Positions 3,083-56,844 of a DNA stretch of 64,000 nucleotides are shown here, piece after piece. The position numbers and the translations under genes are program-made. The notes beneath the pieces are model-generated. The model was given only the letters and a program-made list of their open reading frames with translations. It was not told where the DNA came from and did not search any database. Every line of letters begins with the position of its first letter. Within the stretch, counting starts at the first letter, position 1. Location: IMG/VR virus record IMGVR_UViG_3300022902_000004, positions 254,268 to 318,267 of that record; one strand, given 5' to 3'. The DNA is from a virus.

Positions 3083-3089
3083 TAGTCGG

Positions 3090-18910: not shown

Positions 18911-19144
18911 TCAATCAATGTAAGGACCATCATCCTCGTAACAGGGCAGGTCGGCGTTCCTCAAGGTATACCCGAAGATGTTGGCCGGCCTGTTACTGTT
19001 CTTGGCAACCCATTTCTTCACCAGTTCCAGGGCAGCACTTTGATCGTTAGGTGGAGCCTCGACCGTGACAGTGTAGGCTCGAGGCATCTGCCAAAAAACA
19101 GGAGCGATGGCATCGTAGGTGTATTCGATGTGTCCAGCAGTCAT
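18911..19144 (-). CDS. hypothetical protein (77 aa)
   Basis: ORF in chain. Confidence 0.45.
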   Translation of the reverse strand: MTAGHIEYTYDAIAPVFWQMPRAYTVTVEAPPNDQSAALELVKKWVAKNSNRPANIFGYTLRNADLPCYEDDGPYID

Positions 19145-19217
19145 GGCGTCTCCAGCGTTTCCCGTCGACCAACCCGGCCAACATATCTATTGTATCACGT
19201 TTTGATGGCTCTTACAT

Positions 19218-19391
19218 GCAGGTTTTTTCAATTGACCGAGCCTGTAACACGTAGTTGACAATCCTAACAACGTCGTCGGCGCTGCAACCGAGCGCCAGCA
19301 GCTCACCGCAAACAGCAGGTGTCACAGCCTCCAGGTCATCGCCGAGCTTATCACACATCTCGTTAATCAAATCAAGCATCACTTCACCCAC
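19218..19391 (-). CDS. small paralog family B protein (MLDLINEM), 57 aa, below the ORF-track threshold
   Basis: Manual translation MLDLINEMCDKLGDDLEAVTPAVCGELLALGCSADDVVRIVNYVLQARSIEKTCM; flanked by two promoter cassettes. Confidence 0.45.
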
Positions 19392-19481
19392 CGTTTCCCG
19401 TCGACCAACCCGGCCAACATATCTATTGTATCACACGTGAACGTGCTTTACACGTGAACGCATACCACAAAAAACGCAACC

Positions 19482-19676
19482 TTACACGAACCACAAGGCT
19501 TGCTCGAGGTAATTATGAACGCTCAGGCGCTTATGGGCATCCGGCTCGTTCTTGGCCAGCCACTCCAACACCTTGACTGTCTCAAAATGTGTACGATCTC
19601 CACCTGCATCGCCGGTTGCCTCGATAGCATAGGCCAGGGCATCGATATCTTCTGTAGTAACGCGAAAGGCTTTCAT
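19482..19676 (-). CDS. hypothetical protein
   Basis: Trimmed to MKAFRVTTED with an AAGGAG RBS. Confidence 0.5.
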   Translation of the reverse strand: MKAFRVTTEDIDALAYAIEATGDAGGDRTHFETVKVLEWLAKNEPDAHKRLSVHNYLEQALWFV

Positions 19677-19677
19677 G

Positions 19678-19878
19678 TTATCGCTCCTTGATTTCATTGC
19701 AGAACACGATGACACGACGGCCATCAATCTCTGCAGCATACCGAGGGTAGCCAGTGTGCATGGGCAGCAGGTTCTCCGTGATGGTACCAACCGTACCAGG
19801 TTTGAAGATGACACCCACGCGCCAGATTTCCTTAGTGGTTTCGAATTTAGTGCCAACAGACAGTTTCAATGTGTTCAT
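19678..19878 (-). CDS. small beta-barrel-like protein (family A-like)
   Basis: 66 aa. Confidence 0.45.
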   Translation of the reverse strand: MNTLKLSVGTKFETTKEIWRVGVIFKPGTVGTITENLLPMHTGYPRYAAEIDGRRVIVFCNEIKER

Positions 19879-19924
19879 GATGAACCTCGTAGTTTCGTGC
19901 TGACCAACCCGGCCAACATATATA

Positions 19925-20756: not shown

Positions 20757-20820
20757 GGTCACTCCAGTTTCTGGTCCCCTTCCCCGGGGACATGTCCATT
20801 GTATCACACGTGAACGTGTT

Positions 20821-21057
20821 TTACACGTTGCCGATGACCTTCTCCCGGATTGATTCCAGGCTGCGCATCTTGGCTTTCAAAGTGTCGACGATGTCCTGTG
20901 CTTCGACTGCGCAGCCGATACCATCACCGGCTTGTCGACGACTTGCTATGTCGTTGCGGTCGACGGCAGCCTGGTGTTGAAGGAACACTGTACTGTCGGC
21001 TTCATCAAGCATCCAGAGTAGGTGTGTCTGCTCGTCGGCTGTGAACTTGCTGGTCAT
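20821..21057 (-). CDS. small paralog family E protein (MTSKFTADEQTHLL)
   Basis: Trimmed; paralog of 21876..22094. Confidence 0.5.
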   Translation of the reverse strand: MTSKFTADEQTHLLWMLDEADSTVFLQHQAAVDRNDIASRRQAGDGIGCAVEAQDIVDTLKAKMRSLESIREKVIGNV

Positions 21058-21160
21058 GGCGGCTCCGTTTGGTGGGCCGGTTATCATCCCCGGCAACATA
21101 TACATTGTATCACACGTGAACGTGTTTTACACGTGAACGCATACCATGTTTGAGGCCGTT

Positions 21161-21596: not shown

Positions 21597-21869
21597 TTAG
21601 GTTACTTTCCCCGGGGTGGGTTGCTCGATTTGTACACCATTTCTAAACCACCCATCATGTTCCGGTCCCCAGCCAAATACTGCCGGCCCATCATCCAGGT
21701 GCTTGTTACCATCCTTGTAATGAATTGTAGTCCCATCAAGCCATGCCCATAGTTCAAACCTGCCTGCTGCATATGAATCATGTCGCCCGCTTGAATAGGG
21801 TATAACGCGGTCTGCACCATGGGCATTCATGAATTTGATGATGGCAACTGTTTGTTCTGGTGTGTACAC
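21597..21869 (-). CDS. MTPxQ-leader superfamily protein (FMNAHGADRV variant)
   Basis: MYTPEQTVAIIKFMNAHGAD ... DGPAVFGWGPEHDGWF. Confidence 0.5.
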   Translation of the reverse strand: MYTPEQTVAIIKFMNAHGADRVIPYSSGRHDSYAAGRFELWAWLDGTTIHYKDGNKHLDDGPAVFGWGPEHDGWFRNGVQIEQPTPGKVT

Positions 21870-21875
21870 GTGAAC

Positions 21876-22094
21876 CTATTGCTGCTTGCCACAGTTATCG
21901 ATTACCTTTTGGCGTGCTGACTCTAGGACAACCAATTCGGCCTCCAGGCGTTCAACCTCACGTGCAGCACGCAATGACTGGGTCTGACTGCACACCACGG
22001 TGGCGATACGCAGGTGATCCTCGAGGTACTGTTTCGAAACTTCAAGTGCACCCAACAAAGTGTCTTCTTCATTAGGGGTGAAATAGCCAGTCAT
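21876..22094 (-). CDS. small paralog family E protein (MTGYFTPNEEDTLL)
   Basis: Trimmed; AGGAG RBS. Confidence 0.5.
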   Translation of the reverse strand: MTGYFTPNEEDTLLGALEVSKQYLEDHLRIATVVCSQTQSLRAAREVERLEAELVVLESARQKVIDNCGKQQ

Positions 22095-22271
22095 GATGAA
22101 CTCCTGTGCACCGGATGGTGTATCCTGCTCGATTCCCGAGCACATAATCATTATAACACGTGGGAACCCTTTTTACACTCGGTGGGCGCACCTTTTGTGC
22201 GAGCTACACAAGAATGCCGGCGGTTATTCACATATATTTCGGCCCAATGGGATCAATGGGTTAGGCGGTGG

Positions 22272-22352
22272 AACGTAAAGGACTGGGTGACGACGGCGGG
22301 CAACGTAAAGGACTGGGTGACGACGGCGGGCAACGTAAAGGACTGGGTGATG
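22272..22352. repeat. tandem direct repeat, 30-bp unit x ~2.7 (aacgtaaaggactgggtgacgacggcgggc)
   Basis: Seen directly in a non-coding stretch. Confidence 0.8.
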
Positions 22353-22491
22353 ATAGTCTAGGTGATGCTTTGGGGTGTAAGCTGTTGATATCGTGTATAA
22401 CAATTTATTTTCATTTATTTTGTTCAAAACAGTGTACACCTGCCCGCGAACGGGCCAAGTCTCCCCACCTCCTGGCTCTCAGTGATACAGC

Positions 22492-22568
22492 GGGCAGGAT
22501 GGGCTGACAGTTGCCTGGTTTGGGCAGGATGGGCTGACAGTTGCCTGGCTTGGGCAGGATGGGCAGGG
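22492..22568. repeat. tandem direct repeat, ~29-bp unit x ~2.6 (gggcaggatgggctgacagttgcctgg(t/c)tt)
   Basis: Seen directly; same non-coding block. Confidence 0.8.
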
Positions 22569-23063
22569 AAACGGTAGACAGAGTGAATCTGAATTGTGTG
22601 TGACCTCGGTGCGCTGACTTTATGAGTGCTGGTGGGCTGATGGGTGAAAGGTGTAGACTCTGTACGTGCACTCTATAGATTAGGAGCCTGAGGTGTGTGG
22701 GTGTGTGTCGTAGTCTGCGTCTATGCTTGCGTAGGTGTTTCTAACCTTTTGATACCTCTGTGGGCGTGCGTGATGGGTGCCGTAGGTTTCAGTATTCATC
22801 GGGTTTCTGTTATTAGTTGTGCCAATTGCACATCTCGGGGCAGAGCCAGGCTGTTCATGACCACAGAGAGCCGGGTTGTCCTGTGAACCAGGGGATTGAC
22901 CGGGTTGTCATGCCTTCAGCCACCATCATGACCCATCTTCTGTGGTCATCTTGTCATAGTCCTGCATACCCTTATAACCATTTGGCATGCTTCAAATCCA
23001 TCGTTCAGTGGACACAGGATGACCCGTGTACGTCCCTAATCATTTCAATGGAGGATACGGTGG

Positions 23064-23402
23064 CTAGAAGGGCAGAAGGTCATCCAAGGTCGGTGTGTAC
23101 CACTCAATCATCATGTCCTTTTCGCTACCATCATCTTCATTGCCCACTAGCGTCATGGTTGTGCGGAACCTGTCGGGCAGGACATCAATGTATTTTTGAA
23201 AATGCATGTTCAGGTTCGGGGCGCAAACCCAGCCACCGCTAGCATTGTGATTGATGTGTGCCCCGAATCCTAGGTCTGCTTCCTTCCAGTCAAACCAAAT
23301 GCCAGCCTCATGTGGTTCGTCACCACCGAGAAACTCCAATGTCGACAGGTCAGGGATGCAACCCATCAGCTTTGTGACGATGACTGTTTGTGCTGGTGCC
23401 AT
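23064..23402 (-). CDS. MTPxQ-leader superfamily protein (MAPAQTVIVTKLMGCIPDLSTL)
   Basis: Trimmed; GAGGAAACACC RBS. Confidence 0.55.
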   Translation of the reverse strand: MAPAQTVIVTKLMGCIPDLSTLEFLGGDEPHEAGIWFDWKEADLGFGAHINHNASGGWVCAPNLNMHFQKYIDVLPDRFRTTMTLVGNEDDGSEKDMMIEWYTPTLDDLLPF

Positions 23403-23716
23403 GGTGTTTCCTCGATTGTCCATACCATGGTTATGTCGCCATCAAGCAATGGCTCAGCATCCGGTCTTTTAAACTCAATCGATGGTGTAATAGACTGTAT
23501 GGCATTGCAATACTTCTCCAATACCGCCCTGCGTCCGGGGTTTGGTACGCTTATCCAGCCTGTCTTGGCTTTATCGCTAATCATCCCAAGCATATTCACC
23601 CCGTCATCCTTCCATATAAGCCATACGGCTTCGGTGTCGTTGGAAACGGTGAGCGTCGACAGGTCTGGGATACAGTTCATGATATGTGTTGCGATATGTG
23701 ATTGTGCCGGTGTCAT
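23366..23716 (-). CDS. MTPxQ-leader superfamily protein (MTPAQSHIATHIMNCIPDLSTL)
   Basis: Family D. Confidence 0.55.
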   Translation of the reverse strand: MTPAQSHIATHIMNCIPDLSTLTVSNDTEAVWLIWKDDGVNMLGMISDKAKTGWISVPNPGRRAVLEKYCNAIQSITPSIEFKRPDAEPLLDGDITMVWTIEETPWHQHKQSSSQS

Positions 23717-23730
23717 TCGATTATCCTTTC

Positions 23731-24117
23731 CTATGCTGCGGTGAAATCATACGGTTCGATGCTCCAGTTCATAACAGAAACCTGCTCCTCCGGATCGGCT
23801 CGTTGCCATACTGCCCCACCCATTTGATTATACCTTGGATGCTCTGGATCATTCTCTGTGCATGCGTCGACGCCACAATCAGCAACGTACGTCATACATT
23901 CATAGCACTTTGCTAATCCAGCCGGTATTCCATCATGTGATCCGTTTGCCGTCACCCAGCCATATGTTGCGTCTTGTTCGATTAACGCCTGCATGTGCAA
24001 GCCGGCATCCACCCATTCACACCACAACTCTCCCTGGCGGATTTCGATGTTTAGTGTCGACAGGTCTGGAATACAGTTCATCAGGCGTGTCAGGATATGT
24101 GATTGTGCTGGTGTCAT
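23731..24117 (-). CDS. MTPxQ-leader superfamily protein (MTPAQSHILTRLMNCIPDLSTL)
   Basis: Trimmed; ATGA overlap. Confidence 0.55.
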   Translation of the reverse strand: MTPAQSHILTRLMNCIPDLSTLNIEIRQGELWCEWVDAGLHMQALIEQDATYGWVTANGSHDGIPAGLAKCYECMTYVADCGVDACTENDPEHPRYNQMGGAVWQRADPEEQVSVMNWSIEPYDFTAA

Positions 24118-24380
24118 GATGTCGTCCCGATGGTACATGATTTAATGTATTTGCCGTGTTCATACCAGGAGCAGGCTCCACCTAAACCGACCACCGCAGG
24201 TCGACCTTTATCTCGATGCTTGTTTCCATGCATGTAATATATCACATGCTCGGCTTGACATTCAATATAGAACGGGCCGGAGTACCACATTGGAGTGCCT
24301 GAAGGAACGGCGACATGGACATTTTCGGCGCCATACTCGTTCATGAACTCGATGACAGCTTTGGTTTGGATGGCATTCAT
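24114..24380 (-). CDS. MTPxQ-leader superfamily protein (MNAIQTKAVIEFMNEYGAENV)
   Basis: Trimmed; ATGA overlaps. Confidence 0.55.
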   Translation of the reverse strand: MNAIQTKAVIEFMNEYGAENVHVAVPSGTPMWYSGPFYIECQAEHVIYYMHGNKHRDKGRPAVVGLGGACSWYEHGKYIKSCTIGTTS

Positions 24381-24745
24381 GATAGCGGATCCTTTGAGAA
24401 CGCGAAACCACAAATCAGCCTGGGTGCTGCCTTATAAACATCATCACCAGGCTGGATTGGGTTCGGTATCATTTTGACTGCGAAATCAGGAGGAAGCTTG
24501 AAATTCATAGAAAGTGTTTCCATGGCATATCTGCTCGTTGTCAGCACAGGCGTTTCTTTATTCTCTATATACCCGCCGCGGCCGCTCTCGTTAATACGAC
24601 CTCGAAGCTTGTTTCCATTGACGCTTTCATATGCAAAAGCGACGCCGGCCTCGGAGAAAAACGTGTTGTCAGTCCAGCGAAATGTCGTCAGGTCTGGCAC
24701 GTTGTCCATGATGCTGATTAGGAGACTCATCTGTTCAGGTTTCAT
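24377..24745 (-). CDS. MTPxQ-leader superfamily protein (MKPEQMSLLISIMDNVPDLTTF)
   Basis: Family D. Confidence 0.55.
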   Translation of the reverse strand: MKPEQMSLLISIMDNVPDLTTFRWTDNTFFSEAGVAFAYESVNGNKLRGRINESGRGGYIENKETPVLTTSRYAMETLSMNFKLPPDFAVKMIPNPIQPGDDVYKAAPRLICGFAFSKDPLS

Positions 24746-25113
24746 GGTGTGTACACCAACGTTGCGTTGGGCGTGTAAAACGTGAAGCCGGTGCCCATTT
24801 TGTTGTTGGCACAGGCGTAATCGTTATAAAGGTGTGTATGAAACGGTTCTGGCATCTTGACTAATTTGGCCAGATCTAAAGCTGTTCCCATTTCCATTAA
24901 CGGCACGTCCCACTCTTCATAGCGAAACTCTCCGCCTGTCGGCTCAATACCAAGTGAAACAAGCACGACCCTTCCTTTGTCATCTTTGAACTCGAACCCG
25001 AGGCGCTCGACTTTCTTGTTTGGCATTGGCATATGTCGCCACTTGAATGAGTCCAAGTAAGGCTCGATGCAGCCCATGATGATGGTTACTGTTTTGGCTT
25101 GTTGTGGTGTCAT
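24742..25113 (-). CDS. MTPxQ-leader superfamily protein (MTPQQAKTVTIIMGCIEPYLDSF)
   Basis: Family D. Confidence 0.55.
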   Translation of the reverse strand: MTPQQAKTVTIIMGCIEPYLDSFKWRHMPMPNKKVERLGFEFKDDKGRVVLVSLGIEPTGGEFRYEEWDVPLMEMGTALDLAKLVKMPEPFHTHLYNDYACANNKMGTGFTFYTPNATLVYTP

Positions 25114-25484
25114 AATGAGTTCCTGGCTCTGCTGCCCATTCGTTCCCCGACAGGTCGAACCGTCTCGAATGTGTCCTTTACTTCATCAATCCAAAATGAC
25201 ATCCAGTTGCCATGGCCACCTTCGGTCATATGGCATCCTGCTGGGCACTCGAGAATGCTCGCGAGTTTGGGGTGTTCATCACTCGGGACGATTGAATGTC
25301 CCTTAGCATATTGAAAGCGTCCGCCTTTCCCATTCGGTGTCACATAGCCCGTAATCAGCCCGTGGTTTAGTGATATGAACTCAAACCAAACGACGTCGCC
25401 ATTCCTACTATCGAACTTCAATGTCGATGCATTAGGAACTACTTCCATAACCCGGGTCATCATCAATGATTGTGCAGGTGTCAT
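25110..25484 (-). CDS. MTPxQ-leader superfamily protein (MTPAQSLMMTRVMEVVPNASTL)
   Basis: Trimmed; ATGA overlap. Confidence 0.55.
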   Translation of the reverse strand: MTPAQSLMMTRVMEVVPNASTLKFDSRNGDVVWFEFISLNHGLITGYVTPNGKGGRFQYAKGHSIVPSDEHPKLASILECPAGCHMTEGGHGNWMSFWIDEVKDTFETVRPVGERMGSRARNSL

Positions 25485-25960
25485 GCTAAATCCCTGTTCT
25501 TGATGACCCGCATGTACCTTTTTTGGAAAGGCGGCTCGATACCCGACGACGTAGCTTCGACCAGCGAGAGGCAAATGTCCGTCTTGCTGTTTGCTGCGAC
25601 AGATTTTGCCATGTCGGCAGCACTTATGAATTGATCCTTTTCATGAAATGAAAAGAATGCATTGCGGGGAACGACTCGAATCTCGCATCCTGATGGGCAA
25701 CCAATGACATCCGCTATCTTACCGACACGTGCGGTGTCTGAGTATCCTGGGCAGGTAAAGCAGCCGCGTGTTCCGCTTGCGTTAATCCGGCCGTCAATCC
25801 TGCCAAACCCGGCCAAATCAAACCTAAAATATATGCTATGATCAGGGACTCCACCGTACCAATCAGCTTCAGATGGGTTGCGGTCCCGCATCTCCAACGT
25901 CGATACGTCAGGAATAGCTTCCATAACCCGGGTCATCATGTGGGCTTGTTTAGGTGTCAT
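25481..25960 (-). CDS. MTPxQ-leader superfamily protein (MTPKQAHMMTRVMEAIPDVSTL)
   Basis: Family D. Confidence 0.55.
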   Translation of the reverse strand: MTPKQAHMMTRVMEAIPDVSTLEMRDRNPSEADWYGGVPDHSIYFRFDLAGFGRIDGRINASGTRGCFTCPGYSDTARVGKIADVIGCPSGCEIRVVPRNAFFSFHEKDQFISAADMAKSVAANSKTDICLSLVEATSSGIEPPFQKRYMRVIKNRDLA

Positions 25961-26297
25961 TGTTTACCAACTCTCTTGTGTGGCGTTGATTGAATAACAG
26001 GAGCTCATAATTGAAGCCCGACTTGAATGGCCAAGTACAAAGTACGCCTGCTGGGACCTCGACATACTGCGTAAACTCGTCCCAGTCGCACGTGTCGCCA
26101 CCAGCTTCATCAAACATGACATAGCCATAGCCTTCCGGTCGGATCCTGCCAACAATCTTTCGACCATCTGGAATCACAAACGAAAACCTGACAGCAACCT
26201 CGCCATTCGTGTCATTGGTTTCCCATGATTCAAATAAGGATATGTCGGGTGCCATTCCCATCGCAATCGTTAGAACCGCTGCCTGTCCTTCTGTCAT
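25950..26297 (-). CDS. MTPxQ-leader superfamily protein (MTEGQAAVLTIAMGMAPDISLF)
   Basis: Trimmed; AGGAGGGGAG RBS. Confidence 0.55.
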   Translation of the reverse strand: MTEGQAAVLTIAMGMAPDISLFESWETNDTNGEVAVRFSFVIPDGRKIVGRIRPEGYGYVMFDEAGGDTCDWDEFTQYVEVPAGVLCTWPFKSGFNYELLLFNQRHTRELVNNDT

Positions 26298-26332
26298 CTC
26301 CCCTCCTTTCACTTATATTATACCACACAGGC

Positions 26333-36095: not shown

Positions 36096-36748
36096 AGGTC
36101 CACGTTTGCGTTTGTAATAAGCTTCCCAGCGACGCTCAGGGCACCAATCGTTGGGGTACCACTGGCATAGTATGCCTTGGACAATGAGCTGTTCAGGTAT
36201 TTCTGTTGCTCAGCTTTGCGCTTCTTTTCATCGTTGTGGAAAAGGCCCCACCAATTTGTTTGCATGTCGGCGTCGTCATCTGGTGTTTCTGTTTCGTGGT
36301 GGTCATAATCAGGCCGAAAGTCGAACTGTTTCTTTTCGATGTCATCACGGTTGTTCATGTAAAAGTTCCACACGTTGGTGGCATCCGGTGAGACAGAGGC
36401 TCTATCAGGTGTGAGCCCGAAGCCTTTCATACCAAGACGCTCCATGACAACATCATACAGCATCGGTCCCCAACTATGAGCTGCTTTGTGGCCAGTATTG
36501 ACCCGAGCAAGAATGACAGAATATGCTTTCATTTTCTTGGCGACTTCATCACCTGGTAGCAACTTTGCCGCCACAAACCCATTGATGTCGTCGCCTCGAT
36601 TGAATCGCTTGCCATCTTTGTCACAGTAAAATGCCCGGATGAAATCGCTGGCTTCAACAATCTTGACGTGCACTTCATCCGGCAGGTCATTCGGTCCTTT
36701 GGCAGATTCAGTCAGAACTTGCCTGACATAATTTTGTAATACGTTCAT
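36092..36748 (-). CDS. paralog family F protein (SWGPMLYDVVME motif) with CTS-like leader
   Basis: Trimmed to MNVLQNYVRQVLTE. Shares motif with 56845..57369 and 58853..59479. Confidence 0.55.
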   Translation of the reverse strand: MNVLQNYVRQVLTESAKGPNDLPDEVHVKIVEASDFIRAFYCDKDGKRFNRGDDINGFVAAKLLPGDEVAKKMKAYSVILARVNTGHKAAHSWGPMLYDVVMERLGMKGFGLTPDRASVSPDATNVWNFYMNNRDDIEKKQFDFRPDYDHHETETPDDDADMQTNWWGLFHNDEKKRKAEQQKYLNSSLSKAYYASGTPTIGALSVAGKLITNANVDL

Positions 36749-38499
36749 CACACATTTCCCATCATAATCTTCAGATGTTTCGCGCCTGACTTGCCAATTT
36801 TCCGGTAGTACCAACCATCTGAATCCGGCCCGAAGTTTCTGTTTGGGTGTGGTCCCAGCCATTCGATTGGTTTCTTGAGGATGGCACGAACCTTGGCTTC
36901 ATCTGTCACAGCGTTCACGCCTGCTTTGAATGCAAGCCATGCAGGTGCACCAGACGTCTCGACGAAGGTACCTTTCCTCTTCAGTAAGTCAAACATATGT
37001 TGAGATGTTGGGTTCTTGCCATCTGCACCATCATGCCCGCGACCACCGATCTTGAGGCGACCGTCTTTGTACTTGCCAAAAATGACACCGTCGGGTTGCG
37101 GATCTTCATCCACATCAACGGTATCGAAGAACTCGTAACCACCTGGTAAATCCTCAGGCTTTTTGATTTTGAGGTTGCCACCGATTGGGGCATATGCGGT
37201 TGAAATCAGGTCGAGAACCTCATCATCGATATCAACTTCTTTCCTGTGTACTGCGAGTTCTTCAGCAGGTACATCTTCCCATTTATTTTTAGGTACGCCC
37301 ATATCTGCGAACGTCTTTTCTAGCAGAATGTTCATACGAAGAAACGATTCAGTCAATGACTTGAACACGTCCACCTCAGCAGAGTGCATCGCCTGTCCAA
37401 TCTGGGGACCCTTCAATCCTTTTGCCATTAGTTCCTGTGGTCGGAGTGTTGGGGACCTCTGGACGAACTCCAGGAACCCTTGAACGAACTTCTCGGGCAT
37501 ACCGACTGCCAACGCAAACTCTTCCAGCTTTTCCGGAGGAACCCTAAGTCGCTTGAATTCTTTCTTCAATTTTGGTGAAGTGGACGCAACAATTCCAGGC
37601 AGATTCAATAGGAACTGAACCATCCCGGCCTCGTCGCTTGTGTACTTCATCTTCCGTAGGACCTTGGCAACTGCGCCCGGGTCGTTCCCCCAAAGAAGAA
37701 GGGCAACCTGAACATCGAAATGTTTCGAAGCAGGTGCTGCGTCGACTTCAAGTCCTGGGAAAATCTGTGGCCACAAACCTAGGTCACCAATGAGCCCCAG
37801 AAGGTGCTGCCCGTCGATTGCTGACTTGACTGCCTTAGCAAACTCGTCATGAATACGTTCTGGCGACACGCCTGATAGGTCGTTGTCTCGCTTGATTGCT
37901 GAGGCAGTTGTTTCATCCAAGTCGGAGCCTAGACGAGCAGCGAACCTGACAGCCCGCAGAATACGAAGCTTGTCCTCCCTAAATCGAAGGGCAGGATCAC
38001 CGACAGCGCGGATGACTCCATTCTTTACGTCCTCAATACCGCCAACGTAGTCGACCACCTCACCGGTTGTCAAGTCGTAGAAGAGAGCATTGATTGTAAG
38101 GTCACGACGGTTTACATCGTCCTCGATTGTAGTGAACTCAACAGAGTCAGGACGTCGGCCTTCACCAATGTCATTTCTGAACGTTGCAATTTCGTATTCC
38201 TCACCACCGACAGTTCGAACCCGAACAACGCCAAACGCCTTGCCAGTTAGATCGATGCGATGTGATGGGTCCTTTGAAACAATGTCGATGACACGTTGTG
38301 GTTCGGCACCTGTTGCAAGGTCGTAGTCCTTCGGGATTTTCCCGAGGAGTGTATCCCTGACGGCACCACCAACAACGTATAGCTCCTCACCAGCCTCCAT
38401 GAAGGCATCCAGGATCCCGCCCAAATCGGCAGGAGTCTGCAGGTGCATTTTCATTTTGATTGGGGCACGGTCCAGCATTTCAAGAATGTTTTGTTGCAT
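36748..38499 (-). CDS. cca: tRNA nucleotidyltransferase (CCA-adding enzyme / polyA polymerase family), 583 aa
   Basis: YVVGGAVRDTLLGKIPKDYDLAT head-domain signature. Long C-terminal extension. Confidence 0.8.
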   Translation of the reverse strand: MQQNILEMLDRAPIKMKMHLQTPADLGGILDAFMEAGEELYVVGGAVRDTLLGKIPKDYDLATGAEPQRVIDIVSKDPSHRIDLTGKAFGVVRVRTVGGEEYEIATFRNDIGEGRRPDSVEFTTIEDDVNRRDLTINALFYDLTTGEVVDYVGGIEDVKNGVIRAVGDPALRFREDKLRILRAVRFAARLGSDLDETTASAIKRDNDLSGVSPERIHDEFAKAVKSAIDGQHLLGLIGDLGLWPQIFPGLEVDAAPASKHFDVQVALLLWGNDPGAVAKVLRKMKYTSDEAGMVQFLLNLPGIVASTSPKLKKEFKRLRVPPEKLEEFALAVGMPEKFVQGFLEFVQRSPTLRPQELMAKGLKGPQIGQAMHSAEVDVFKSLTESFLRMNILLEKTFADMGVPKNKWEDVPAEELAVHRKEVDIDDEVLDLISTAYAPIGGNLKIKKPEDLPGGYEFFDTVDVDEDPQPDGVIFGKYKDGRLKIGGRGHDGADGKNPTSQHMFDLLKRKGTFVETSGAPAWLAFKAGVNAVTDEAKVRAILKKPIEWLGPHPNRNFGPDSDGWYYRKIGKSGAKHLKIMMGNV

Positions 38500-42323: not shown

Positions 42324-42467
42324 TTGTGCCGTCCGTATTCTAAAAAAGTGCCAATCCCCAGAGAACCAACATCGTAACTATCCAAATAGTAAACATGTGC
42401 ATCCTCCAGTTCCTATAAACATTATACCACGATTTACGGCCGTTTACACAAAACTGATGTTATTTGA

Positions 42468-43148
42468 TTCGCAAAGATATTTATATGTATAAAGAGTTAT
42501 TACGTTTATCGTATTATTAACAAGCTGAATGGGCGATTTTATATCGGCGTTAGAACCTGCAAAGGAAATATTCATACAGATTCATACATGGGATCAGGTT
42601 CTGCGATTGGATTAGCTATCAAAAAATATGGAAAGGAAAACTTTGCTAAGGTTATAATGTCGCAACATGAAACCCGCAATGAAGCATTGCTTGCTGAGGC
42701 TTTGTATGTTCCGCAAGAGTTGGTCGACGATTCAATATGTTACAATCTTTGCCAAGGTGGTCTCGGCGGTGAAGGATATTCCCCTTCTGTTGAAACACGA
42801 AAGAAACTTAGCAACGCATTGAAAGGTCACCTTGTCTCTATTGAAACACGAAAGAAAATCGCCAAATCATTGACAGGTGGAACTAGATCACTTGAATCTC
42901 GACAAAAAATGCGCGAACGAGCCTTACAAAGAGAACCCATATCAGATGCTACTCGTCAAAAAATGAGTGCAGCAAAGAAAAAGCAAGCAAGAACGCCGGC
43001 TGCACGCAAAAGAGTAAGTTTGTCTACCATTGGAAGACTTTGGTGGAACAATGGCACCCAAAATAAGTTTTGTAAAGATTGCCCGGGTGATGAATATGTC
43101 CGCGGCCGAATCAAATGGGCCAAATCACTTGATAAGAAGCCTATCTAA
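42468..43148 (+). CDS. GIY-YIG homing endonuclease with NUMOD3 repeats; no canonical ATG at the expected start
   Basis: In-frame KSYYVYRIINKLNGRFYIGV (GIY-YIG) precedes the first ATG. Repeats ETRKKLSNALKG, ETRKKIAKSLTG, ESRQKMRERA. AT-rich island. Confidence 0.6.
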   Translation, partial: FAKIFICIKSYYVYRIINKLNGRFYIGVRTCKGNIHTDSYMGSGSAIGLAIKKYGKENFAKVIMSQHETRNEALLAEALYVPQELVDDSICYNLCQGGLGGEGYSPSVETRKKLSNALKGHLVSIETRKKIAKSLTGGTRSLESRQKMRERALQREPISDATRQKMSAAKKKQARTPAARKRVSLSTIGRLWWNNGTQNKFCKDCPGDEYVRGRIKWAKSLDKKPI

Positions 43149-43967
43149 ACCTGAACCGCACATCCAGTTTTTGTCGCATTTACCTTTGACGCCTGCTGTC
43201 GAGCCTGAGCCGGTCCACTGCCACACATCCCATTGGTTCCAGACACGAACGCCGCGTTTTGGTTCAATACCGGTGTTGTAGCTTGCCCACCAACATGGGT
43301 ATTTGCTAAGCCGCTTCAGCAAATCTTCATCGGCATGCTTGAGGTATAAATCTGATGCCCACTTCGCGCAGTAAATTCCTGGCTTACAACCGAGCTTAGC
43401 CTCGACATACTCCAACCAAGTCAACGCCCACTCAGCATTGTAACTGTCGTCGGACTTACTTCCAGCTTCCAAATCGAGCATGGGAATCAAGTCGCCACAA
43501 CGAACATGGCCTTTGATGGAAGCCAGGAAATTGTCTGCTTCCTGGATTGCATCGCGGAAATCTTGCTTTGGCCCGTTGTCAGGTCGACCGAAATGGTATC
43601 CACCAACAATCAATCCAGCATTTCGCACTGCGGTCATATTTCTCTTACGTGATTTGTCCTTGAATGTGGTACCTTCTGAGCACTTGATCCATGCGAAGCT
43701 GACGCCATCCTTTGCGACCTCCTTCCAGTTGACCTTGCCGTTGCCGTTGTAGATGTCGATGCCAGCCAAAACTGGAATGCCCAGGTGATCGAGGGTGACA
43801 GGTCCTGCGACGCCATCAGATGATAGGCCATGATCTTCTTGGTAGTCCTTCAAATCGCTTTCAGTTCCGGGACCGAAGTCTCCGTCGATGAACTTGCATT
43901 TCAGCGCCATCTGGAGACGCTTGACCTCTTGACCCTTATCACCCGCTCGCATTACAAATTGTTTCAT
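43125..43967 (-). CDS. endolysin: GH25 muramidase with N-terminal peptidoglycan-binding domain
   Basis: FGPGTESDLKDYQEDHGLSSDGVAGPVT (PG_binding_1-like) plus DIYNGNGKVNW ... FAWIKCSEGTTFKD. Trimmed to MKQFVMR with an AGGAGAG RBS. Confidence 0.8.
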   Translation of the reverse strand: MKQFVMRAGDKGQEVKRLQMALKCKFIDGDFGPGTESDLKDYQEDHGLSSDGVAGPVTLDHLGIPVLAGIDIYNGNGKVNWKEVAKDGVSFAWIKCSEGTTFKDKSRKRNMTAVRNAGLIVGGYHFGRPDNGPKQDFRDAIQEADNFLASIKGHVRCGDLIPMLDLEAGSKSDDSYNAEWALTWLEYVEAKLGCKPGIYCAKWASDLYLKHADEDLLKRLSKYPCWWASYNTGIEPKRGVRVWNQWDVWQWTGSGSTAGVKGKCDKNWMCGSGLDRLLIK

Positions 43968-43995
43968 TATGTTCTCTCCTGCACTTTGTGCACCT

Positions 43996-44856
43996 CTAAA
44001 TAGGCTCACGCTTAGCGCGCTTAGACCTATTTGGCATACTGTTTCTGCCCATAACCCATCCGACGCGAATGTTGCTTTCAACATCATCAATTGGAACCAA
44101 TTTATTGGCACCATCTTTTTTCATCCATTTTCTTGCTTTGGCAAATTGTGTTCGGCCCGGCTTCCAGCCTTTTTTCAAGTATTCATCAAACAACATGTTT
44201 TGTATTTGCTTGTTTACACCATTTTTACAAACCCATTTAAACGTTTTGCCAAAGTTAGGATTGTTTTCGCCAGTCATTAAATCAGATTGGCGTTGTTTTT
44301 GTTCGTTTGTTCTGGTCGTTCCAAACATCCCGTTCTTTTCGCCCATTAAAGATGCTGATCGTCTTGCAAGCATCACAATTTGTAATTCGTCTGCTTTTTC
44401 TTTGCCATATTTTTCAAGCCATACATCATAGCATCCGCGACCACGCATTCCATGGTTTTTTGATATTAATCGTTTCGTTTTTTCTGTGTGTTTTCTACCA
44501 TAAAAAGGGTTTCCTGTTCCACGAAATGAATCGGCAATTTCATTCAATGCAATATGCTTTTCATGATCAGATGCCAGATGTTGCACACCAAATCGCATTA
44601 ATGCAAAAACCATTTTTGATTTTTCAATGCCGACTAACATTTTTGTTAACAATCTATGAACTGCATAATGCTCAAGCACGGTTAACAAAACAAGATTTTC
44701 ACAGTCGTCGGTGCCACCTAATGATTTCGGTAAAATGTGATGATTATGATAATTGGCTACATCACTTCTTCGTCGACATGAGAGTTTTGCACTTTTAATT
44801 ATTTCATAATATTGGTGCGTTGAATCGTTATCAATAAACATTTTTGTTCGTCGCAT
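43996..44856 (-). CDS. HNH homing endonuclease with NUMOD-like repeats
   Basis: HHILPKSLGGTDDCENLVLLTVLEH; repeats NPFYGRKHTEKTKRLIS and NGMFGTTRTNEQKQRQS. Confidence 0.8.
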   Translation of the reverse strand: MRRTKMFIDNDSTHQYYEIIKSAKLSCRRRSDVANYHNHHILPKSLGGTDDCENLVLLTVLEHYAVHRLLTKMLVGIEKSKMVFALMRFGVQHLASDHEKHIALNEIADSFRGTGNPFYGRKHTEKTKRLISKNHGMRGRGCYDVWLEKYGKEKADELQIVMLARRSASLMGEKNGMFGTTRTNEQKQRQSDLMTGENNPNFGKTFKWVCKNGVNKQIQNMLFDEYLKKGWKPGRTQFAKARKWMKKDGANKLVPIDDVESNIRVGWVMGRNSMPNRSKRAKREPI

Positions 44857-45350: not shown

Positions 45351-45440
45351 TGGTGTACCCGCCCGGAGTCGAACCGGGGTGTTGAACGCTTCAATTTCAT
45401 GTCATTCACAAGGTTATCCGGTTCTTCTCAACCGGCAAGT
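45351..45440 (-). tRNA. tRNA-like element (canonical T-arm and ACCA 3' end; 5' half not foldable by eye) - possibly degenerate
   Basis: Minus strand ...CCCGGTTCGACTCCGGGCGGGTACACCA-3'. No matching acceptor 5' strand found. Followed by ~350 nt without ORFs. Confidence 0.3.
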
Positions 45441-45787
45441 CTGCCTATAAAACACCCGTCCCGTTCTAGACACTGGGACCCACCTGGCGAGCCAGGGAAC
45501 CATTTAGCAACCATTTTTATCTCAATGCGGTAAAACATCCAGCCAATTTTGGGTATCAAGGTAGTTGGCCACCTCGCAATTATGCAGCTTGTGCGTAAGA
45601 GTACTCCGAGTTATCGTTAGCAATTATCATTTCAGCGTTTTTACGAAGCCGCGCTGCCCTTCGCCTTGCACATTCAATATTATTCGCCCAATCGAAACCA
45701 GTTCGGGCACATTGTTTGTCAAATTCTCCTATGTTCAGCGACGTTTCATCGCCCTCAATATAAGTATAATCATTTTGCGAAAGATGT

Positions 45788-47303: not shown

Positions 47304-48320
47304 TTATATCTCCAAAGGTGATGCCGACCAAATGATCTCATTCAATGACTGACTGCATGATTGGCGCAAAAACTCCCCAACGATAAACTTGAAAGTGTGA
47401 AATTCCTTAATCACAGTAATGAGCTGCCCGTCCTTGTAAAGATTGAAGACACCGACCTCCTCGAAGACATCGCTTTTGTTCATTATCAACGTGTTGACAC
47501 CATTTACGTTTACTGCCTTGATAAGGTTGTCGACGTCCAGCCAATTTGTCTGTCGTGGACGTCCCGTAGTAGCTCCAAACTCGTTGCCAACCTTTTGCAG
47601 TTCATACAACGCAGGCTCTTTACCCTGAAACGCCTTGGCACCGACGTATGTTTCGTATGGCTTGGCCACACCGTACACCTTCTTGATTGCCTGCGGTGGG
47701 ATGCCCGCCATGACAGCTCCGGCGGTGGTGCAGGTTGCAGACGTGACGTATGGATAGTCTCCCCAGTCGACATCGAGATAGAAGCCTTGGGCTCCCTCCA
47801 TTAGGACATTGACATCGGCCTCATTTGTATGAAGTTCCTTGTATTCGTCAATCAAGTAAAGCCCGAGACGCCAGTCTTCCTCAGCACATGTGCCAACACG
47901 ACTGACCTTATCACGATACGCAGGACCATTCCCTGTCTTGGTCGTACCGATTCGGGATTCACCTGCTTCCTCTTCGACATGTTCGGGTGTCACCAAGTGT
48001 GCCTTTTCAGATACACGGAGAAGATCAACCATCTCAATTCCAGCAGCCGCAAGCTCAGATATTTCATTCATCAGCTTTTTGGTGTCGACAACACAGCCTC
48101 GACCAATAATCGATTTCAGCCCGCGGAACACACCGGCTGGCACCAGGTGGGTGACAAATTTCTTCCCTTCGTGGTAGATTGTGTGGCCTGCGTTGGAGCC
48201 TCCACTGAATCGCATGACATGGGTATAGTTTCCCTTCTTCGCCAGCGAATGAACAACCTTTCCTTTGCCGCAGTCGCCACTTTGGCAGTCTACAACAACA
48301 TCTGCTGATAGTTTACTCAT
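47304..48320 (-). CDS. purA: adenylosuccinate synthetase family protein, short archaeal-type (PurA or PurZ)
   Basis: QSGDCGKGKVV and GGSNAGHT P-loop signatures; TKTGNGPAY; YLDVDWGDYPYVTS; GTTGRPRQTNWLD. 338 aa. Confidence 0.85.
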   Translation of the reverse strand: MSKLSADVVVDCQSGDCGKGKVVHSLAKKGNYTHVMRFSGGSNAGHTIYHEGKKFVTHLVPAGVFRGLKSIIGRGCVVDTKKLMNEISELAAAGIEMVDLLRVSEKAHLVTPEHVEEEAGESRIGTTKTGNGPAYRDKVSRVGTCAEEDWRLGLYLIDEYKELHTNEADVNVLMEGAQGFYLDVDWGDYPYVTSATCTTAGAVMAGIPPQAIKKVYGVAKPYETYVGAKAFQGKEPALYELQKVGNEFGATTGRPRQTNWLDVDNLIKAVNVNGVNTLIMNKSDVFEEVGVFNLYKDGQLITVIKEFHTFKFIVGEFLRQSCSQSLNEIIWSASPLEI

Positions 48321-48328
48321 TTTTTCCT

Positions 48329-49213
48329 TTATAAGATTTGTTTGAAATCGTTTATGTCAATTTGTTTTTTCGCGTTTCGCTTGTTTATAATAAAACAAAA
48401 CGTTTTGTTGTTCAGTTTACAATAATCTGTTGCCGCGGCGTTCTTTGCCATGACTTTATCTTTTTGTTTGTCATACCAATATGTGCTTTTTATTTCGACA
48501 AGCTTATTTCCATTTGTTGTTTCAACTTCAAAATCTACAAAATAATGATGAATGGTACCATTATATGCGTATTTTATTGTCGGCCCATTATGGACACGAA
48601 TATTATTACTTTCACAAAATTGAACAAATTTTTGTTCATATGATCCTTGCACCGCAATCGTGTCATCAAATTTTGTAACATAGCGTTTTGACAATGCCCG
48701 GCCACCTCCATTGCATGCTGCCCGATTTGCTATTTCATTATCATGCATTACATTTTCAACGCCATATCGTTCCATAACGACCTTTTTTATTTTTTCTTTG
48801 ATTTCTTGAGACTGTCCGGGATATTCTACACCGTAATTTTTTAGCATTGTTTGCTTTTTCTTTTCTTTGACTTCTTGAGCCTGTGATGGGTTTTCAACAC
48901 CATACTTTTCTAAATTGCTAGCAATGATTCTTTTTTTGATTTGTTTTGCAGCAAAGACATTCTTAACGCCATATCGGTCTAAAGTCGTTTGCTTTCTTTT
49001 CTCGTTAGCTTGACTTGCTTTCGCCTTAATCGACTTTCCTGATCTTTGGCGGCGTCCTGGGTTTGCATCGCAGCACGCTCGCGAGCAAAAATGATAATTT
49101 GCGCTCATACAAGCTTTTCTATACATTCTTTTGAATTTTATGTTGCATGTTTCACATTGCAGTAGCAATGTACGTTTTGGTGGGGCAGTCTTGTGTAGTA
49201 TTTTTATGAACAT
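48329..49213 (-). CDS. homing-endonuclease-like protein: zinc ribbon, tandem YGVxNP repeats, PD-(D/E)xK-like C-terminus
   Basis: Repeats YGVKNVFAAK, YGVENPSQAQ, YGVEYPGQSQ, YGVENVMHD. HYFVDFEVETTNGNKLVEIKS. Strongly AT-rich island. Confidence 0.65.
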   Translation of the reverse strand: MFIKILHKTAPPKRTLLLQCETCNIKFKRMYRKACMSANYHFCSRACCDANPGRRQRSGKSIKAKASQANEKRKQTTLDRYGVKNVFAAKQIKKRIIASNLEKYGVENPSQAQEVKEKKKQTMLKNYGVEYPGQSQEIKEKIKKVVMERYGVENVMHDNEIANRAACNGGGRALSKRYVTKFDDTIAVQGSYEQKFVQFCESNNIRVHNGPTIKYAYNGTIHHYFVDFEVETTNGNKLVEIKSTYWYDKQKDKVMAKNAAATDYCKLNNKTFCFIINKRNAKKQIDINDFKQIL

Positions 49214-51557: not shown

Positions 51558-52967
51558 TTAACCCCACGTGTTCTTGCGGACTTCGTCCAGCGTGTAATCC
51601 TGTGTCACCTCACCATCCTCAAACACCGTCTCGAGCAGGTCAGCATCTGATGCCGAAGACTCCGGAACGGTCATGATTTTATTTCCGTCTCTACCTGTCA
51701 TTGCAACCAAGGCATGTCGGCCCGGCTTCGAGCGCTTACCTGGAGCATCAATCGGATCCTTGAACACGTCTCGGCCTTCACCATTTACGCTAATCCAAGA
51801 ACACTTGAATGCAAACTTCTGGGTGTCACGGTTCATCTTCTGGAGCAAGGCTCCTCCTGACCCGAATGCGATATTATCGGCACTCCAACCAGCAGCCATG
51901 ATTGCATCAAGAATCTGGGAAATCACAAAGCGGTCAACTCCATCCCCTTGGATGATACGCACGTGAGGATCTAAGACCTTGTAACCTTTCTTGTTGGTGG
52001 TAAATCCAAAGGCCTCCCCAAGACGCTCCAGACACTCCAGGACAACACTCTGTGGGTCTCCTGAGTCCGGCCGTACGACCAGCGTTCCATCTCGAGCCAG
52101 GATTTCTGCTTTCAGTTCCTGACCCCACAATTCTGAGCACGCTTTGTAAATGTCGTAGCTATCTGAAACGCATGCAACCAGTCCGGTTGGGTATTGCTCC
52201 AGCATGTTTCGAAAGGCATTGACCTCGCCTTCCTTTCCCCACGATGTAATTGTCGAGTGCTCACTGGCTGGAATGCTGAATCCTGCCATTTGAGTGTTGT
52301 AGTGGTTCCTGGCCAATACCAAGGCTGCCACCGTATCTGTTCCCATGAAGTTGACAAGGTGACCGAAGCCACCGATGCCTGCAGTTTCAACAGACGACAC
52401 ACCACGGAAACCGAAGTCGTGCAGTTTGAAGTAGATGCCTGCTGGTGTTCCGGATTTCTCCAGTGCCGCAGCAATAATCAACCGGCTGGCCCGACTAATC
52501 GTTGCCACGGTGCACGGGTACCAAACCTGAACCAGCAAGGTCTCGAGGTAATTGGTCAACCACCAACACTTCGGGTCTGTATTCTCAATCGTCAACATCA
52601 CGTTGTGGGTCGGAACAACTGTTCCTTCCCTGACCGCTTTGATTCTGACGGGCAACCGCCCATCATGCTCATTGAGAATGTGCTCCCAGCCTTCTCGGTT
52701 GAAACACGTATCGTTGCCGAAATGCAGATGGAAGAATTCCTCTGCTTCGTCGATGCGTTCCTGTGTTACGACCTGTCCCTCGAGGTATTCCTGCAAGAAG
52801 TACTGCAGTCCCACGAAGACAACATCGTCGAATTCACCGCCGCGACTCTCAAAGTAGGAGTAAACGGTCTCAGTTCCCTCAGGATATTGCTTGGAATGTG
52901 ATACCTTGTATGAATCTGTCATCAAGATAATGTTTTTTGGATCGATGTTCTTGTTGTAGTAGCTCAT
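51558..52967 (-). CDS. nadV: nicotinamide phosphoribosyltransferase (NAMPT)
   Basis: 469 aa with NAPRTase-family motifs (GTDTVA..., FGFRGVSS). AAGAGGTGAAAGC RBS. Confidence 0.85.
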   Translation of the reverse strand: MSYYNKNIDPKNIILMTDSYKVSHSKQYPEGTETVYSYFESRGGEFDDVVFVGLQYFLQEYLEGQVVTQERIDEAEEFFHLHFGNDTCFNREGWEHILNEHDGRLPVRIKAVREGTVVPTHNVMLTIENTDPKCWWLTNYLETLLVQVWYPCTVATISRASRLIIAAALEKSGTPAGIYFKLHDFGFRGVSSVETAGIGGFGHLVNFMGTDTVAALVLARNHYNTQMAGFSIPASEHSTITSWGKEGEVNAFRNMLEQYPTGLVACVSDSYDIYKACSELWGQELKAEILARDGTLVVRPDSGDPQSVVLECLERLGEAFGFTTNKKGYKVLDPHVRIIQGDGVDRFVISQILDAIMAAGWSADNIAFGSGGALLQKMNRDTQKFAFKCSWISVNGEGRDVFKDPIDAPGKRSKPGRHALVAMTGRDGNKIMTVPESSASDADLLETVFEDGEVTQDYTLDEVRKNTWG

Positions 52968-53968: not shown

Positions 53969-54112
53969 TTATACACTCTTCCTTGCTAGGACCACAATCA
54001 ACCTAAGCCTCCCGGCTGTGATTATGATGTTTCGCTGTTTGCCTCCCGGCATTTACGAGAACCCCTTGTCCTCATGATCTAATTATACCCGCCACCATGG
54101 CGATGTACAAAA

Positions 54113-55147: not shown

Positions 55148-55148
55148 A

Positions 55149-56054: not shown

Positions 56055-56069
56055 GGGACCTGTGCCCCT

Positions 56070-56112
56070 TATTTATAACTCAATTATATCATAAAAATTG
56101 TCAGTTTACACG
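56070..56112 (-). promoter_or_regulatory. early-promoter cassette (TGATATAAT variant) driving rnl2-guaC-natV-nadV
   Basis: Minus strand GTGTAAAC ... TGATATAAT, ~25 nt upstream of the start. Confidence 0.45.
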
Positions 56113-56157
56113 AACAACTGGATATTTAGTAACGTATACATAACCCATGGAGAATAT

Positions 56158-56823: not shown

Positions 56824-56844
56824 ATCTTACACGAAGTTCACACA

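Follow-up and report, generated by a model that had tools for sequence, protein, structure and literature searches.

Iteron-type replication origins, such as R6K gamma, pSC101, P1 oriR and that of the PLE satellite with its RepA, are non-coding and combine several asymmetric sites of about 20 bp with an adjacent AT-rich melting element; in PLE, the non-coding region contains several repeat types (PMC7145576). In phage T4, oriE possesses direct repeats that are also present in the syntenic regions of related phages (PMC3016281), and the injection stop signal of phage T5 is a large untranslated, repeat-rich region with DnaA boxes that is conserved in 25 T5-like phages (bioRxiv 10.1101/866236). 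Here we describe a gene-free interval of 969 bp in a 64,000-nucleotide stretch of viral DNA, hereafter the window, which covers positions 254,268 to 318,267 of the IMG/VR record IMGVR_UViG_3300022902_000004 and whose source is a very large uncultivated marine phage (jumbo phage). The interval, referred to as the block, spans positions 22095-23063 of the window and is flanked by the minus-strand genes 21876-22094 and 23064-23402. A preliminary description of this DNA, made from the sequence alone, had noted two sets of tandem direct repeats and a GT-rich tract in it and had proposed a candidate replication origin or iteron region. We read the block as a conserved cis-acting DNA control region for which, judging from the sequence, an iteron-type replication origin is the most likely identity, and we hold this view tentatively.

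As in the iteron origins mentioned before, the block is non-coding, several asymmetric sites of approximately 20 bp lie beside an AT-rich candidate melting element, and consensus matches for the host factors IHF and DnaA (DnaA box) are found in it. It is, however, much larger (about 900 bp), it includes some 500 bp of further conserved sequence, the spacing of its sites is 23-34 bp instead of a fixed period of about 22 bp, with the sites inverted in one lineage, and it has no sequence similarity to known origins, as none of 50,697 phage records matched it. It shares with T4 oriE a location among small early genes, the tie to an early-type promoter and a cluster of direct repeats that is kept syntenically, and the window also resembles T4 in having a sigma-70-type early promoter family together with an over-represented TATAAATA motif. 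The T4 repeats, in contrast, are 12 nt long and evenly spaced, whereas the sites in the block, which we term Box A, have 21 bp and variable spacing. The T5 injection stop signal is likewise a large conserved untranslated repeat region among early genes that is thought to act as DNA (bioRxiv 10.1101/866236), but it is situated in the terminal repeat, within the first-step-transfer DNA, and contains eight ordered DnaA boxes, inverted repeats and palindromes, whereas in the block the single DnaA-box match is unconserved, and notable palindromes or signs of a genome end are missing.

The absence of genes from this stretch was confirmed: none was called there in any full-length metagenome contig that carries the flanking genes. 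In total, 18 contigs with the exact flanking proteins or close variants were retrieved, many of which end inside the block. While word-indexed protein searches found just one relative besides the query, the orthologues P0008 (53% identity) and P0017 (32%) emerged once the flanking protein on the upstream side was used in an exhaustive search with HMMER. Three further lineages, whose flanking proteins are 86%, 53% and 32% identical to that of the window, keep a gene-free gap of 0.9-1.1 kb at the same place. This gap, which follows the orthologue of gene 23064-23402, measures 969 bp in the window, about 1094 bp in the P0001 contig, 926 bp in L047 and 898 bp in L048/L049, and the gene order of a DUF2201 protein, a Pyr_excise protein, a tandem paralogue family, the gap and small genes is kept in L047 and L048/L049. 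The comparison of these lineages at the DNA level comprises L047 and L048/L049 and leaves out the contigs of P0001 (86% identical) and P0003 as well as L052, which is too short. In the alignment, the gap sequences of L047 and L048/L049 are homologous to the block over nearly its full length. The preliminary description had named the absence of the region from close relatives, or its occupation by ordinary genes, as the finding that would speak against it, and the opposite was seen: the gap is retained and homologous, which supports the view of the block as a maintained non-coding element of the cis-acting type. At least four lineages keep it at a single syntenic position.

The degree of conservation is uneven and exceeds that of the neighboring genes. 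Segment 22936-23063 is 88-91% identical in every lineage pair, and the whole block reaches 59-67% between lineages, compared with 50-64% for the adjacent gene 23064-23402; the downstream genes of the window and L048 are not even orthologous. In L047, the high identity runs on into the 3' end of the upstream gene (89% over 23064-23100). As the identity of the block is higher than that of its coding flanks, selection acts on it at the nucleotide level, and the block is anchored to the end of the paralogue cluster. Within the block, invariant sequence blocks alternate with variable clusters. A different kind of variation is found in contig L005, which is identical to the window from 22803 rightwards and differs by about 35%, with indels and islands of identity, over 22337-22802. 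Short divergent patches of a similar kind occur in the flanking gene of other contigs, and together with them the divergent tract of L005 is best explained as having been acquired by recombination with a related lineage.

The strongest candidate for an iteron array is the first repeat. Tandem Repeats Finder (TRF) assigned 2.9 copies of a 30-bp unit with 96% match to positions 22264-22350, where 2.7 copies at 22272-22352 had been described before, and this array and the second one have by far the two highest tandem-repeat scores in the 64 kb. Neither repeat unit recurs elsewhere in the window, and shuffled sequences likewise lead one to expect no matches. Repeat 1 (22264..22353, plus strand) contains three 21-bp Box A sites, AC(G/A)TAAAGGAnnGGGTGATGA, at 22273-22293, 22303-22323 and 22333-22353, and no other good Box A match was found within the 64 kb. 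Three Box A sites are present in each lineage for which DNA was compared, with spacings of 30/30 bp in the window, 23/34 bp in L048/L049 and 32/24 bp in L047. In L047, the sites are inverted (22/22 reverse-complement match to the third copy of the window, E 5e-8), and this stretch is the sole inverted segment in the block. As the Box A sequence is kept despite changed spacing and orientation, it is probably recognized as double-stranded DNA. The perfect 30-bp units of the window are a recent homogenization of the older Box A array, restricted to the window lineage, and among near-identical contigs that span the array, three copies are present in 6/11 and two in 5/11. Repeat 1 thus behaves like the proposed iteron array, with three conserved sites that are unique in 64 kb and lie beside a conserved AT-rich element; repeat 2 does not, as it is single copy in two lineages and unrepeated in a third. 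Several direct repeats that are conserved in relatives, as expected for an iteron origin, are therefore found only in Box A.

The second repeat was confirmed as a tandem array, but TRF determined a period of 30 bp instead of 29 and 2.4 instead of 2.6 copies (22492-22564, 97% match). Repeat 2 (22492..22564, plus strand) is a 2.4 x 30 bp tandem duplication of the conserved segment GTTGCCTGGTTTGGGCAGGATGGGCAGGGAAACGG that occurs in the window lineage only; the segment is single copy in L005 and L048/L049 and unrepeated in L047. The eye-catching tandem repeats are hence recent slippage or duplication products over an older architecture, and while repeat 1 re-copies a putative functional site, repeat 2 is a simple duplication of a conserved single-copy segment. 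Mimicry of a clustered regularly interspaced short palindromic repeat (CRISPR) was considered for repeat 2 and rejected: its core 18-mer had 28 single-copy matches in unrelated genomes and none in arrays, in a weak test that relied on exact matching of one 18-mer and for which we estimate about 17 chance matches. CRISPR direct-repeat families in Rfam did not match the block either.

An AT-rich element at 22396..22435 follows the Box A array and carries two phased T-tract 10-mers, ATTTATTTTC and ATTTATTTTG, at 22403-22422, which makes it a candidate DNA-unwinding or bent element, of the type that is expected next to the sites of an iteron origin. It is the fourth least stable of the 63,960 40-mers in the window (least stable 0.05%), and the only three less stable ones all lie in low-GC islands beyond 42 kb. 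The T-tracts are kept in L005, L047 and L048, and the element is within the least stable 0.1-0.2% in L048/L049. Between it and the Box A array, the alignment contains the conserved block GGGGTG(T/C)AAG..GTTGA (22372..22388), which overlaps an IHF-consensus match at 22378-22390 that is kept in L048 only. Two of the six IHF-consensus matches of the window lie in the block and are kept at best in L048, and one of the seven DnaA-box matches lies in the block, inside a non-conserved stretch.

The block does not code for proteins. None of its ORFs (open reading frames) has a match in Pfam or PHROG, the frames are broken differently in each lineage, and the overlapping ORFs merely read through the repeats, as had been stated before. 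Over 22857-23063, all six frames show 1-6 synonymous versus 20-24 non-synonymous codon differences, and no frame has an excess of synonymous changes; the ratio is about 1:4 in these frames and likewise in both candidate ORFs. A plus-strand ORF of 79 codons that runs through repeat 1 was dismissed, since the alignment of its conserved part reads as 2 synonymous versus 9 non-synonymous codon changes. The block also does not behave as a structured RNA. An Rfam search with the block in three lineages gave nothing above chance, single-sequence folding z-scores were positive and folds thus no better than those of shuffles, and sliding 120-nt consensus folds of three lineages on both strands remained at |z| < 1.5 with a best z of -1.4. 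The whole-block consensus fold, compared with column-shuffled alignments, gave z +0.76 for the plus and +0.04 for the minus strand, and compensatory pairs were no commoner than in column shuffles. A small RNA locus, which had been suggested as alternative to an origin, is therefore not supported if a structured RNA was meant. As the block is neither coding nor a structured RNA, the constraint must act on the primary sequence, that is on DNA sites or on unstructured RNA.

We prefer the interpretation as an iteron-type origin because it covers most of these facts, namely the non-coding nature, the syntenic conservation, an array of asymmetric sites that is unique in 64 kb and an adjacent unwinding-type element, and because T4 oriE (PMC3016281) and the non-coding origin region of PLE (PMC7145576) provide precedents. 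In such an origin, a sequence-specific protein of the phage or the host would bind the Box A sites, and this binding, maybe aided by DNA bending through the IHF-like matches and T-tracts, would open the AT-rich element. The 400 bp to the right of that element, G/T-rich on one strand and C/A-rich on the other, could then serve as a zone of strand-specific initiation or priming.

Several observations weigh against an origin. In contrast to iteron origins with their cognate initiator genes, no initiator or recognizable replication gene adjoining the block was found with Pfam and PHROG, although an initiator may lie elsewhere in this genome of at least 318 kb; the neighbors are small proteins without known relatives, and the downstream gene differs between lineages. 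T4 origins of the oriE, oriF and oriG type are characterized by a switch in strand bias, and close to T4 oriE both the direction of transcription and the skew change. At the block, neither gene orientation nor cumulative GC skew switches, as genes are on the minus strand throughout and the skew is monotonic except for a local bump. According to a T4 review, moreover, the oriE repeats were never tied to origin activity (PMC3016281). The fixed orientation and helical phasing of iterons are not seen either, given the variable spacing and the inversion in L047. Plasmid iteron origins such as RK2 are usually intolerant of inverted sites. It also weighs against an origin that the host-factor matches are poorly kept, the one to the DnaA box being unconserved and those to IHF kept at best in L048, that a single population possesses either two or three Box A sites, that the origin model assigns no role to some 500 bp of conserved sequence on the right-hand side, among them the 128 bp of highest conservation next to the upstream stop codon, and that the motif statistics are partly post hoc.

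The main rival explanation, which we regard as possible but rather unlikely, is a transcription boundary combined with promoter control. The C-rich, G-poor and unstructured gene-sense RNA would load Rho and end the upstream operon, the conserved small ORF with a strong ribosome-binding site (described below) might modulate termination as in leader-peptide systems such as tna, and Box A with the bent AT-rich DNA would act from upstream, as operator or activator, on the early promoter at 22147-22180. Indeed, the untranslated, C-rich, G-poor and unstructured RNA that is expected of a Rho utilization (rut) region is present: a C/G ratio of at least 2 on the transcribed strand is reached by only 1.06% of the 78-nt windows in the 64 kb, and by far the longest run of them (about 550 nt) is in the block. 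The skew recurs in L047, L048 and L005, and the gene-sense RNA folds weakly, with -4.4 kcal/mol over 98 nt for repeat 1 (z +1.9) and -12 to -19 kcal/mol per 120 nt in the nearly unstructured 22480-22840. No intrinsic terminator follows gene 23064, a family promoter is located at the left end of the block, and the ribosome-binding site and small ORF are kept in four lineages. Rut sites between phage early operons are comparable in that untranslated C-rich, G-poor, unstructured RNA lies downstream of an operon, but they typically have about 80 nt and the block is far longer, and its sequence is conserved and not its composition alone. Rho loading needs composition and neither 88-91% identity over 128 bp nor invariant blocks of 20-30 nt, and the 30-odd other promoters of the window are not preceded by any such zone. 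The spacer between Box A and promoter is not conserved and leaves a distance that varies from about 70 to 170 bp, and in L047 the RNA becomes more G-rich where the Box A array is inverted. An action at the RNA level without a stable fold, which we consider distinctly unlikely, would involve a long conserved unstructured RNA, either as 3' untranslated region of the upstream operon or as separate transcript, that works by base-pairing or protein binding as sponge, decoy or processing signal. It would agree with the strong conserved strand asymmetry, with a primary sequence that is conserved where base pairs are not, and with the position of the most conserved module, which begins at the upstream stop codon and whose identity continues into the 3' end of that gene in L047. 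However, the block contains no family promoter on either strand (best score 6 versus 27-43 for real members), no sigma-70 promoter and no intrinsic terminator, and the Box A sequence is kept when inverted, which does not suit an RNA signal. A sponge of the CsrB/RsmZ type for CsrA was rejected because the GGA motif is not enriched (15 observed versus 17.3 expected).

Another type of cis-acting DNA site, such as a pac recognition site, a partition or centromere-like site, or an injection-stop or anchoring region as in the pre-early genes of T5, is to be given only a small chance. Direct asymmetric sites that tolerate changes of spacing and orientation would be in line with it, and so would the position among early genes, which the T5 injection stop signal shares (bioRxiv 10.1101/866236). 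Against this, no terminase or partition genes are among the window ORFs scanned against Pfam, the contig ends near the block are scattered and fit strain variation rather than a physical genome end, and the only DnaA-box match is not conserved. Hidden coding of very small proteins, either by the minus-strand ORF of 15-17 codons or by a Cys/Val-rich plus-strand ORF at 22695, is very unlikely. Shine-Dalgarno-like sequences with start codons do exist on both strands in all lineages (AGGAGG-TTG on the minus and TAGGAG-N8-GTG on the plus strand), and the plus-strand ORF, which starts after the conserved TAGGAG-N8-GTG and first drew notice by an apparent period-3 substitution pattern versus L005, is open for 31-185 codons in four lineages. 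Its ratio of synonymous to non-synonymous changes is, however, about 1:4 in every one of six lineage pairs, neither its length nor its C-terminus is conserved, and as small membrane protein (22695-22886) it was rejected with 4 synonymous and 15 non-synonymous changes and a premature stop in L005 and no PHROG match. In addition to the lack of a synonymous excess in 22857-23063, such ORFs are never called by gene callers in full-length contigs, open frames are expected because one strand is A-poor and the other G- and T-poor, and less than 10% of the block would be explained at best. The view that the block is a neutral spacer of decayed genes and slippage repeats without function is close to refuted. 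The tandem copies are perfect, recent and polymorphic in number, many assemblies break inside the block, and the L005 allele differs strongly over 22337-22802, all of which would fit a spacer; yet a similar length is kept in four lineages, parts are far more conserved than the neighboring genes, and the block resembles no gene of the window, as blastn and tblastx against the rest of the window gave nothing that would point to a decayed paralogue.

As alternative to these described classes, we also considered an undescribed phage control region that is organized like the mitochondrial control region, or a new class of long unstructured RNA with conserved sequence, and regard this as unlikely. 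The likeness to the mitochondrial control region is an analogy only. The features behind it are the length of about 900 bp, the invariant blocks between hypervariable segments that expand by repeats, and the extreme asymmetry of G/T versus C/A. Such a region might act via single-stranded DNA or a persistent RNA-DNA hybrid and could combine the priming of replication with the control of early transcription.

Returning to the iteron-type origin as the preferred identity, the remaining parts of the block can be described from left to right. The left 86 bp (22095-22180) are an ordinary minus-strand member of the promoter family with its leader. The 5' leader of gene 22094..21876 (22095..22146, minus strand), as read from the sequence, contains the stem-loop GCTCG-GGAAU-CGAGC at 22127-22141 and an AGGAG ribosome-binding site, and the early promoter (22147..22180, minus strand) consists of GTGTAAAA at 22171-22178, an 11-nt spacer and the extended -10 element GTGTTATAAT (TATAAT at 22150-22155). 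This promoter has a position-weight-matrix score of 29.3, inside the range of the approximately 35 family members, and is kept in L047 and L048. It is followed by a variable spacer (22181..22263) with 17-41% identity to L047/L048, in which the DnaA-box match TTATTCACA is found at 22224-22232.

To the right of Box A, a candidate small ORF (22411..22473, minus strand) has a Shine-Dalgarno-like AGGAGG at 22468-22473 and 15-17 TTG-initiated codons at 22458..22411, and overlaps GTGTACAC (22432-22439) and CGGGCCAAGTC (22451-22461). The AAGGAGG and the TTG small ORF (MAR....VH...QN) are in frame in 4/4 lineages, with varying middle codons, and in transcript order the ORF is directly upstream of the AT-rich element. 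A GCCCG/CGGGC hairpin was discarded, as it is not kept in L047 or L048. The four-lineage alignment further contains the conserved block C(C/T)TCCTGG(C/T)TC(T/C)CAGTGATACAG at 22468..22490, and beyond repeat 2 lies a partly conserved segment (ATTGTGTGT..CCTCrGT, GTGGGC) at 22592..22660. An E. coli-type Chi octamer, GCTGGTGG, on its plus strand (22628-22635) is one of two in the window, no more than expected by chance, and has not been kept in L005, L047 or L048. The next conserved block, TCTATAGA(A/T)TAGGAGCCTGAGGTGTGT, is followed by the G/T-rich tract (22672..22760, plus strand; 64-91% identity between lineages over 22671-22760), whose gene-sense strand is C/A-rich. Of the GT tract in the preliminary description, the G/T-richness holds at 22690-22745, whereas a pure (GT)n run is absent. 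The plus-strand GC skew rises up to +0.5 inside the block, compared with about -0.1 in the flanking genes. The conserved blocks TTCATCGGGTTTCT..TAGTTG(C/T)GCCAATTGCA and AGCCGGGTTGTCCT(G/A)TGA..CA(G/A)GGGATTG(A/G)CCGGG, with variable clusters between them, occupy 22795..22935, and the most conserved module, at 22936..23063, lies directly next to the stop codon of gene 23064-23402. This module is free of indels in all lineages, and a conserved RNA structure was not found in it either.

Some further candidates within the block were tried and rejected. A T7/SP6-like promoter at CTCTATAGA was dropped as this sequence occurs once in the window, G-quadruplexes formed only when loops of up to 18 nt were allowed, and the dispersed motif GGG(N)TGAY is enriched but was picked post hoc, and an unbiased k-mer count gave nothing strong. 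CAGGATG occurs within the duplicated unit and has only one further occurrence. A comparison of the block with 50,697 phage records in near and distant modes gave no match, and no relatives of it were detectable in the phage record collection, IMG/VR or Rfam; of two metagenome scans, one was negative, and the other added a contig whose first 2.9 kb match the window exactly and extend into the block.

The promoter at the left end of the block belongs to a family of about 35 members in the window (1015-56113; examples are at 3083, 5254, 14067, 21134, 22180 and 33013), which are on the minus strand without exception and have the consensus cGTGTAA(A/G)A-N11-GTGGTATAAT-N4-ATGTTGCCGGGGA. Each copy precedes a short GC 5' stem-loop with a GGRAN loop, and these promoter and stem-loop copies are similar to the cassettes with promoter-early stem-loops (PeSLs) in T4-type phages (PMC2839356, PMC4122927). 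As with PeSL cassettes, the promoter and stem-loop that flank the block are part of a dense repeated family, and the gene cassettes between promoters differ among contigs (PMC2839356, PMC4122927). PeSLs are short promoter-terminator motifs, in contrast, whereas the 900-bp block is single copy and outside that repeat family. The inter-promoter cassettes vary among otherwise identical contigs (window 21597-21869 and 18964-19901; L004, L009, L012-L014 and L016): a 90-codon gene is replaced by a second 72-codon gene in some contigs, and L016 departs from the window sequence at 19901/18964. Three promoters (19434-19460, 20807-20830 and 21113-21140) carry the motif CACGTGAAC at their core in the context CACGTGAACGTG(T/C)TTTACAC, and in two of them it is directly repeated after the core; it has an operator-like appearance, and paralogous small genes lie downstream of these promoters. 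The T4 late-promoter motif TATAAATA is over-represented in the window, with 7 observed versus 0.76 expected occurrences on both strands (14708, 27665, 42478, 46976, 49217, 56070 and 61148; none within the block). The promoter family and the excess of TATAAATA place the block in a dense early-gene region with T4-like regulatory logic.

The gene cluster that ends at the block is a tandem family of 6-10 paralogous genes with 105-135 codons and the N-terminus MTPAQSHI..CIPDLSTL, and the block is always at its end. The family is located at 23064-26312 (minus strand) in the window, at 1460-3829 in L047 and at 4001-6318 in L048, and residues 48-89 of the paralogues match a unit that is repeated 5-8x in giant proteins of 560-6500 residues.

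Across the 64 kb, the minus strand carries all credible genes. The encoded proteins include a CCA-adding enzyme, NAMPT, an NMNAT-Nudix protein, a GMP-reductase-like protein, adenylosuccinate synthetase, an RNA ligase and homing-type nucleases, and the only database phages in which related proteins were found, with about 35% identity, have metagenomic genomes of 460-735 kb that carry no annotation. The window has no match at the DNA level in the phage record collection. The auxiliary genes are located at 36748-38499, 47304-48320, 51558-56054 and 62172-63734; besides the CCA-adding enzyme, adenylosuccinate synthetase, the GMP-reductase/IMPDH-like protein and the RNA ligase, they comprise NAMPT and the NMNAT-Nudix protein for NAD salvage and a protein with major-vault-protein shoulder and SPFH domains. 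A phage-encoded transfer-messenger RNA gene (45351-45710, minus strand) specifies the tag peptide ANDNSEYSYAQAA (Rfam 92 bits; ARAGORN), and no tRNA genes were found in the 64 kb. Low-GC islands (38-43% GC) at 42324-44856, 48329-49213 and 56000-56850, which carry an HNH-NUMOD3 endonuclease, a TnsA-like/DUF7487 protein and possible plus-strand ORFs, are likely mobile insertions.

We know of no replication origins or other cis-acting control sites that have been defined for huge uncultivated metagenomic phages. The block has no detectable relative in the phage record collection, IMG/VR or Rfam and still falls within a familiar class, the cis-acting control regions of phages, and if it were only a transcription boundary, it would be an ordinary regulatory region in an unusual phage. 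The repeats that first draw attention illustrate that repeat number alone is a poor guide to function, as perfect tandem repeats can be recent overlays. Being single copy in 64 kb and recognizable across lineages whose neighbor proteins are down to 32% identical, the block can serve as an anchor for read-depth studies of replication in environmental samples, and the 21-bp Box A is a defined, putative site with which its binding protein may be found. In this way, a group of giant phages still beyond the reach of culture gains a candidate origin that can be put to the test.

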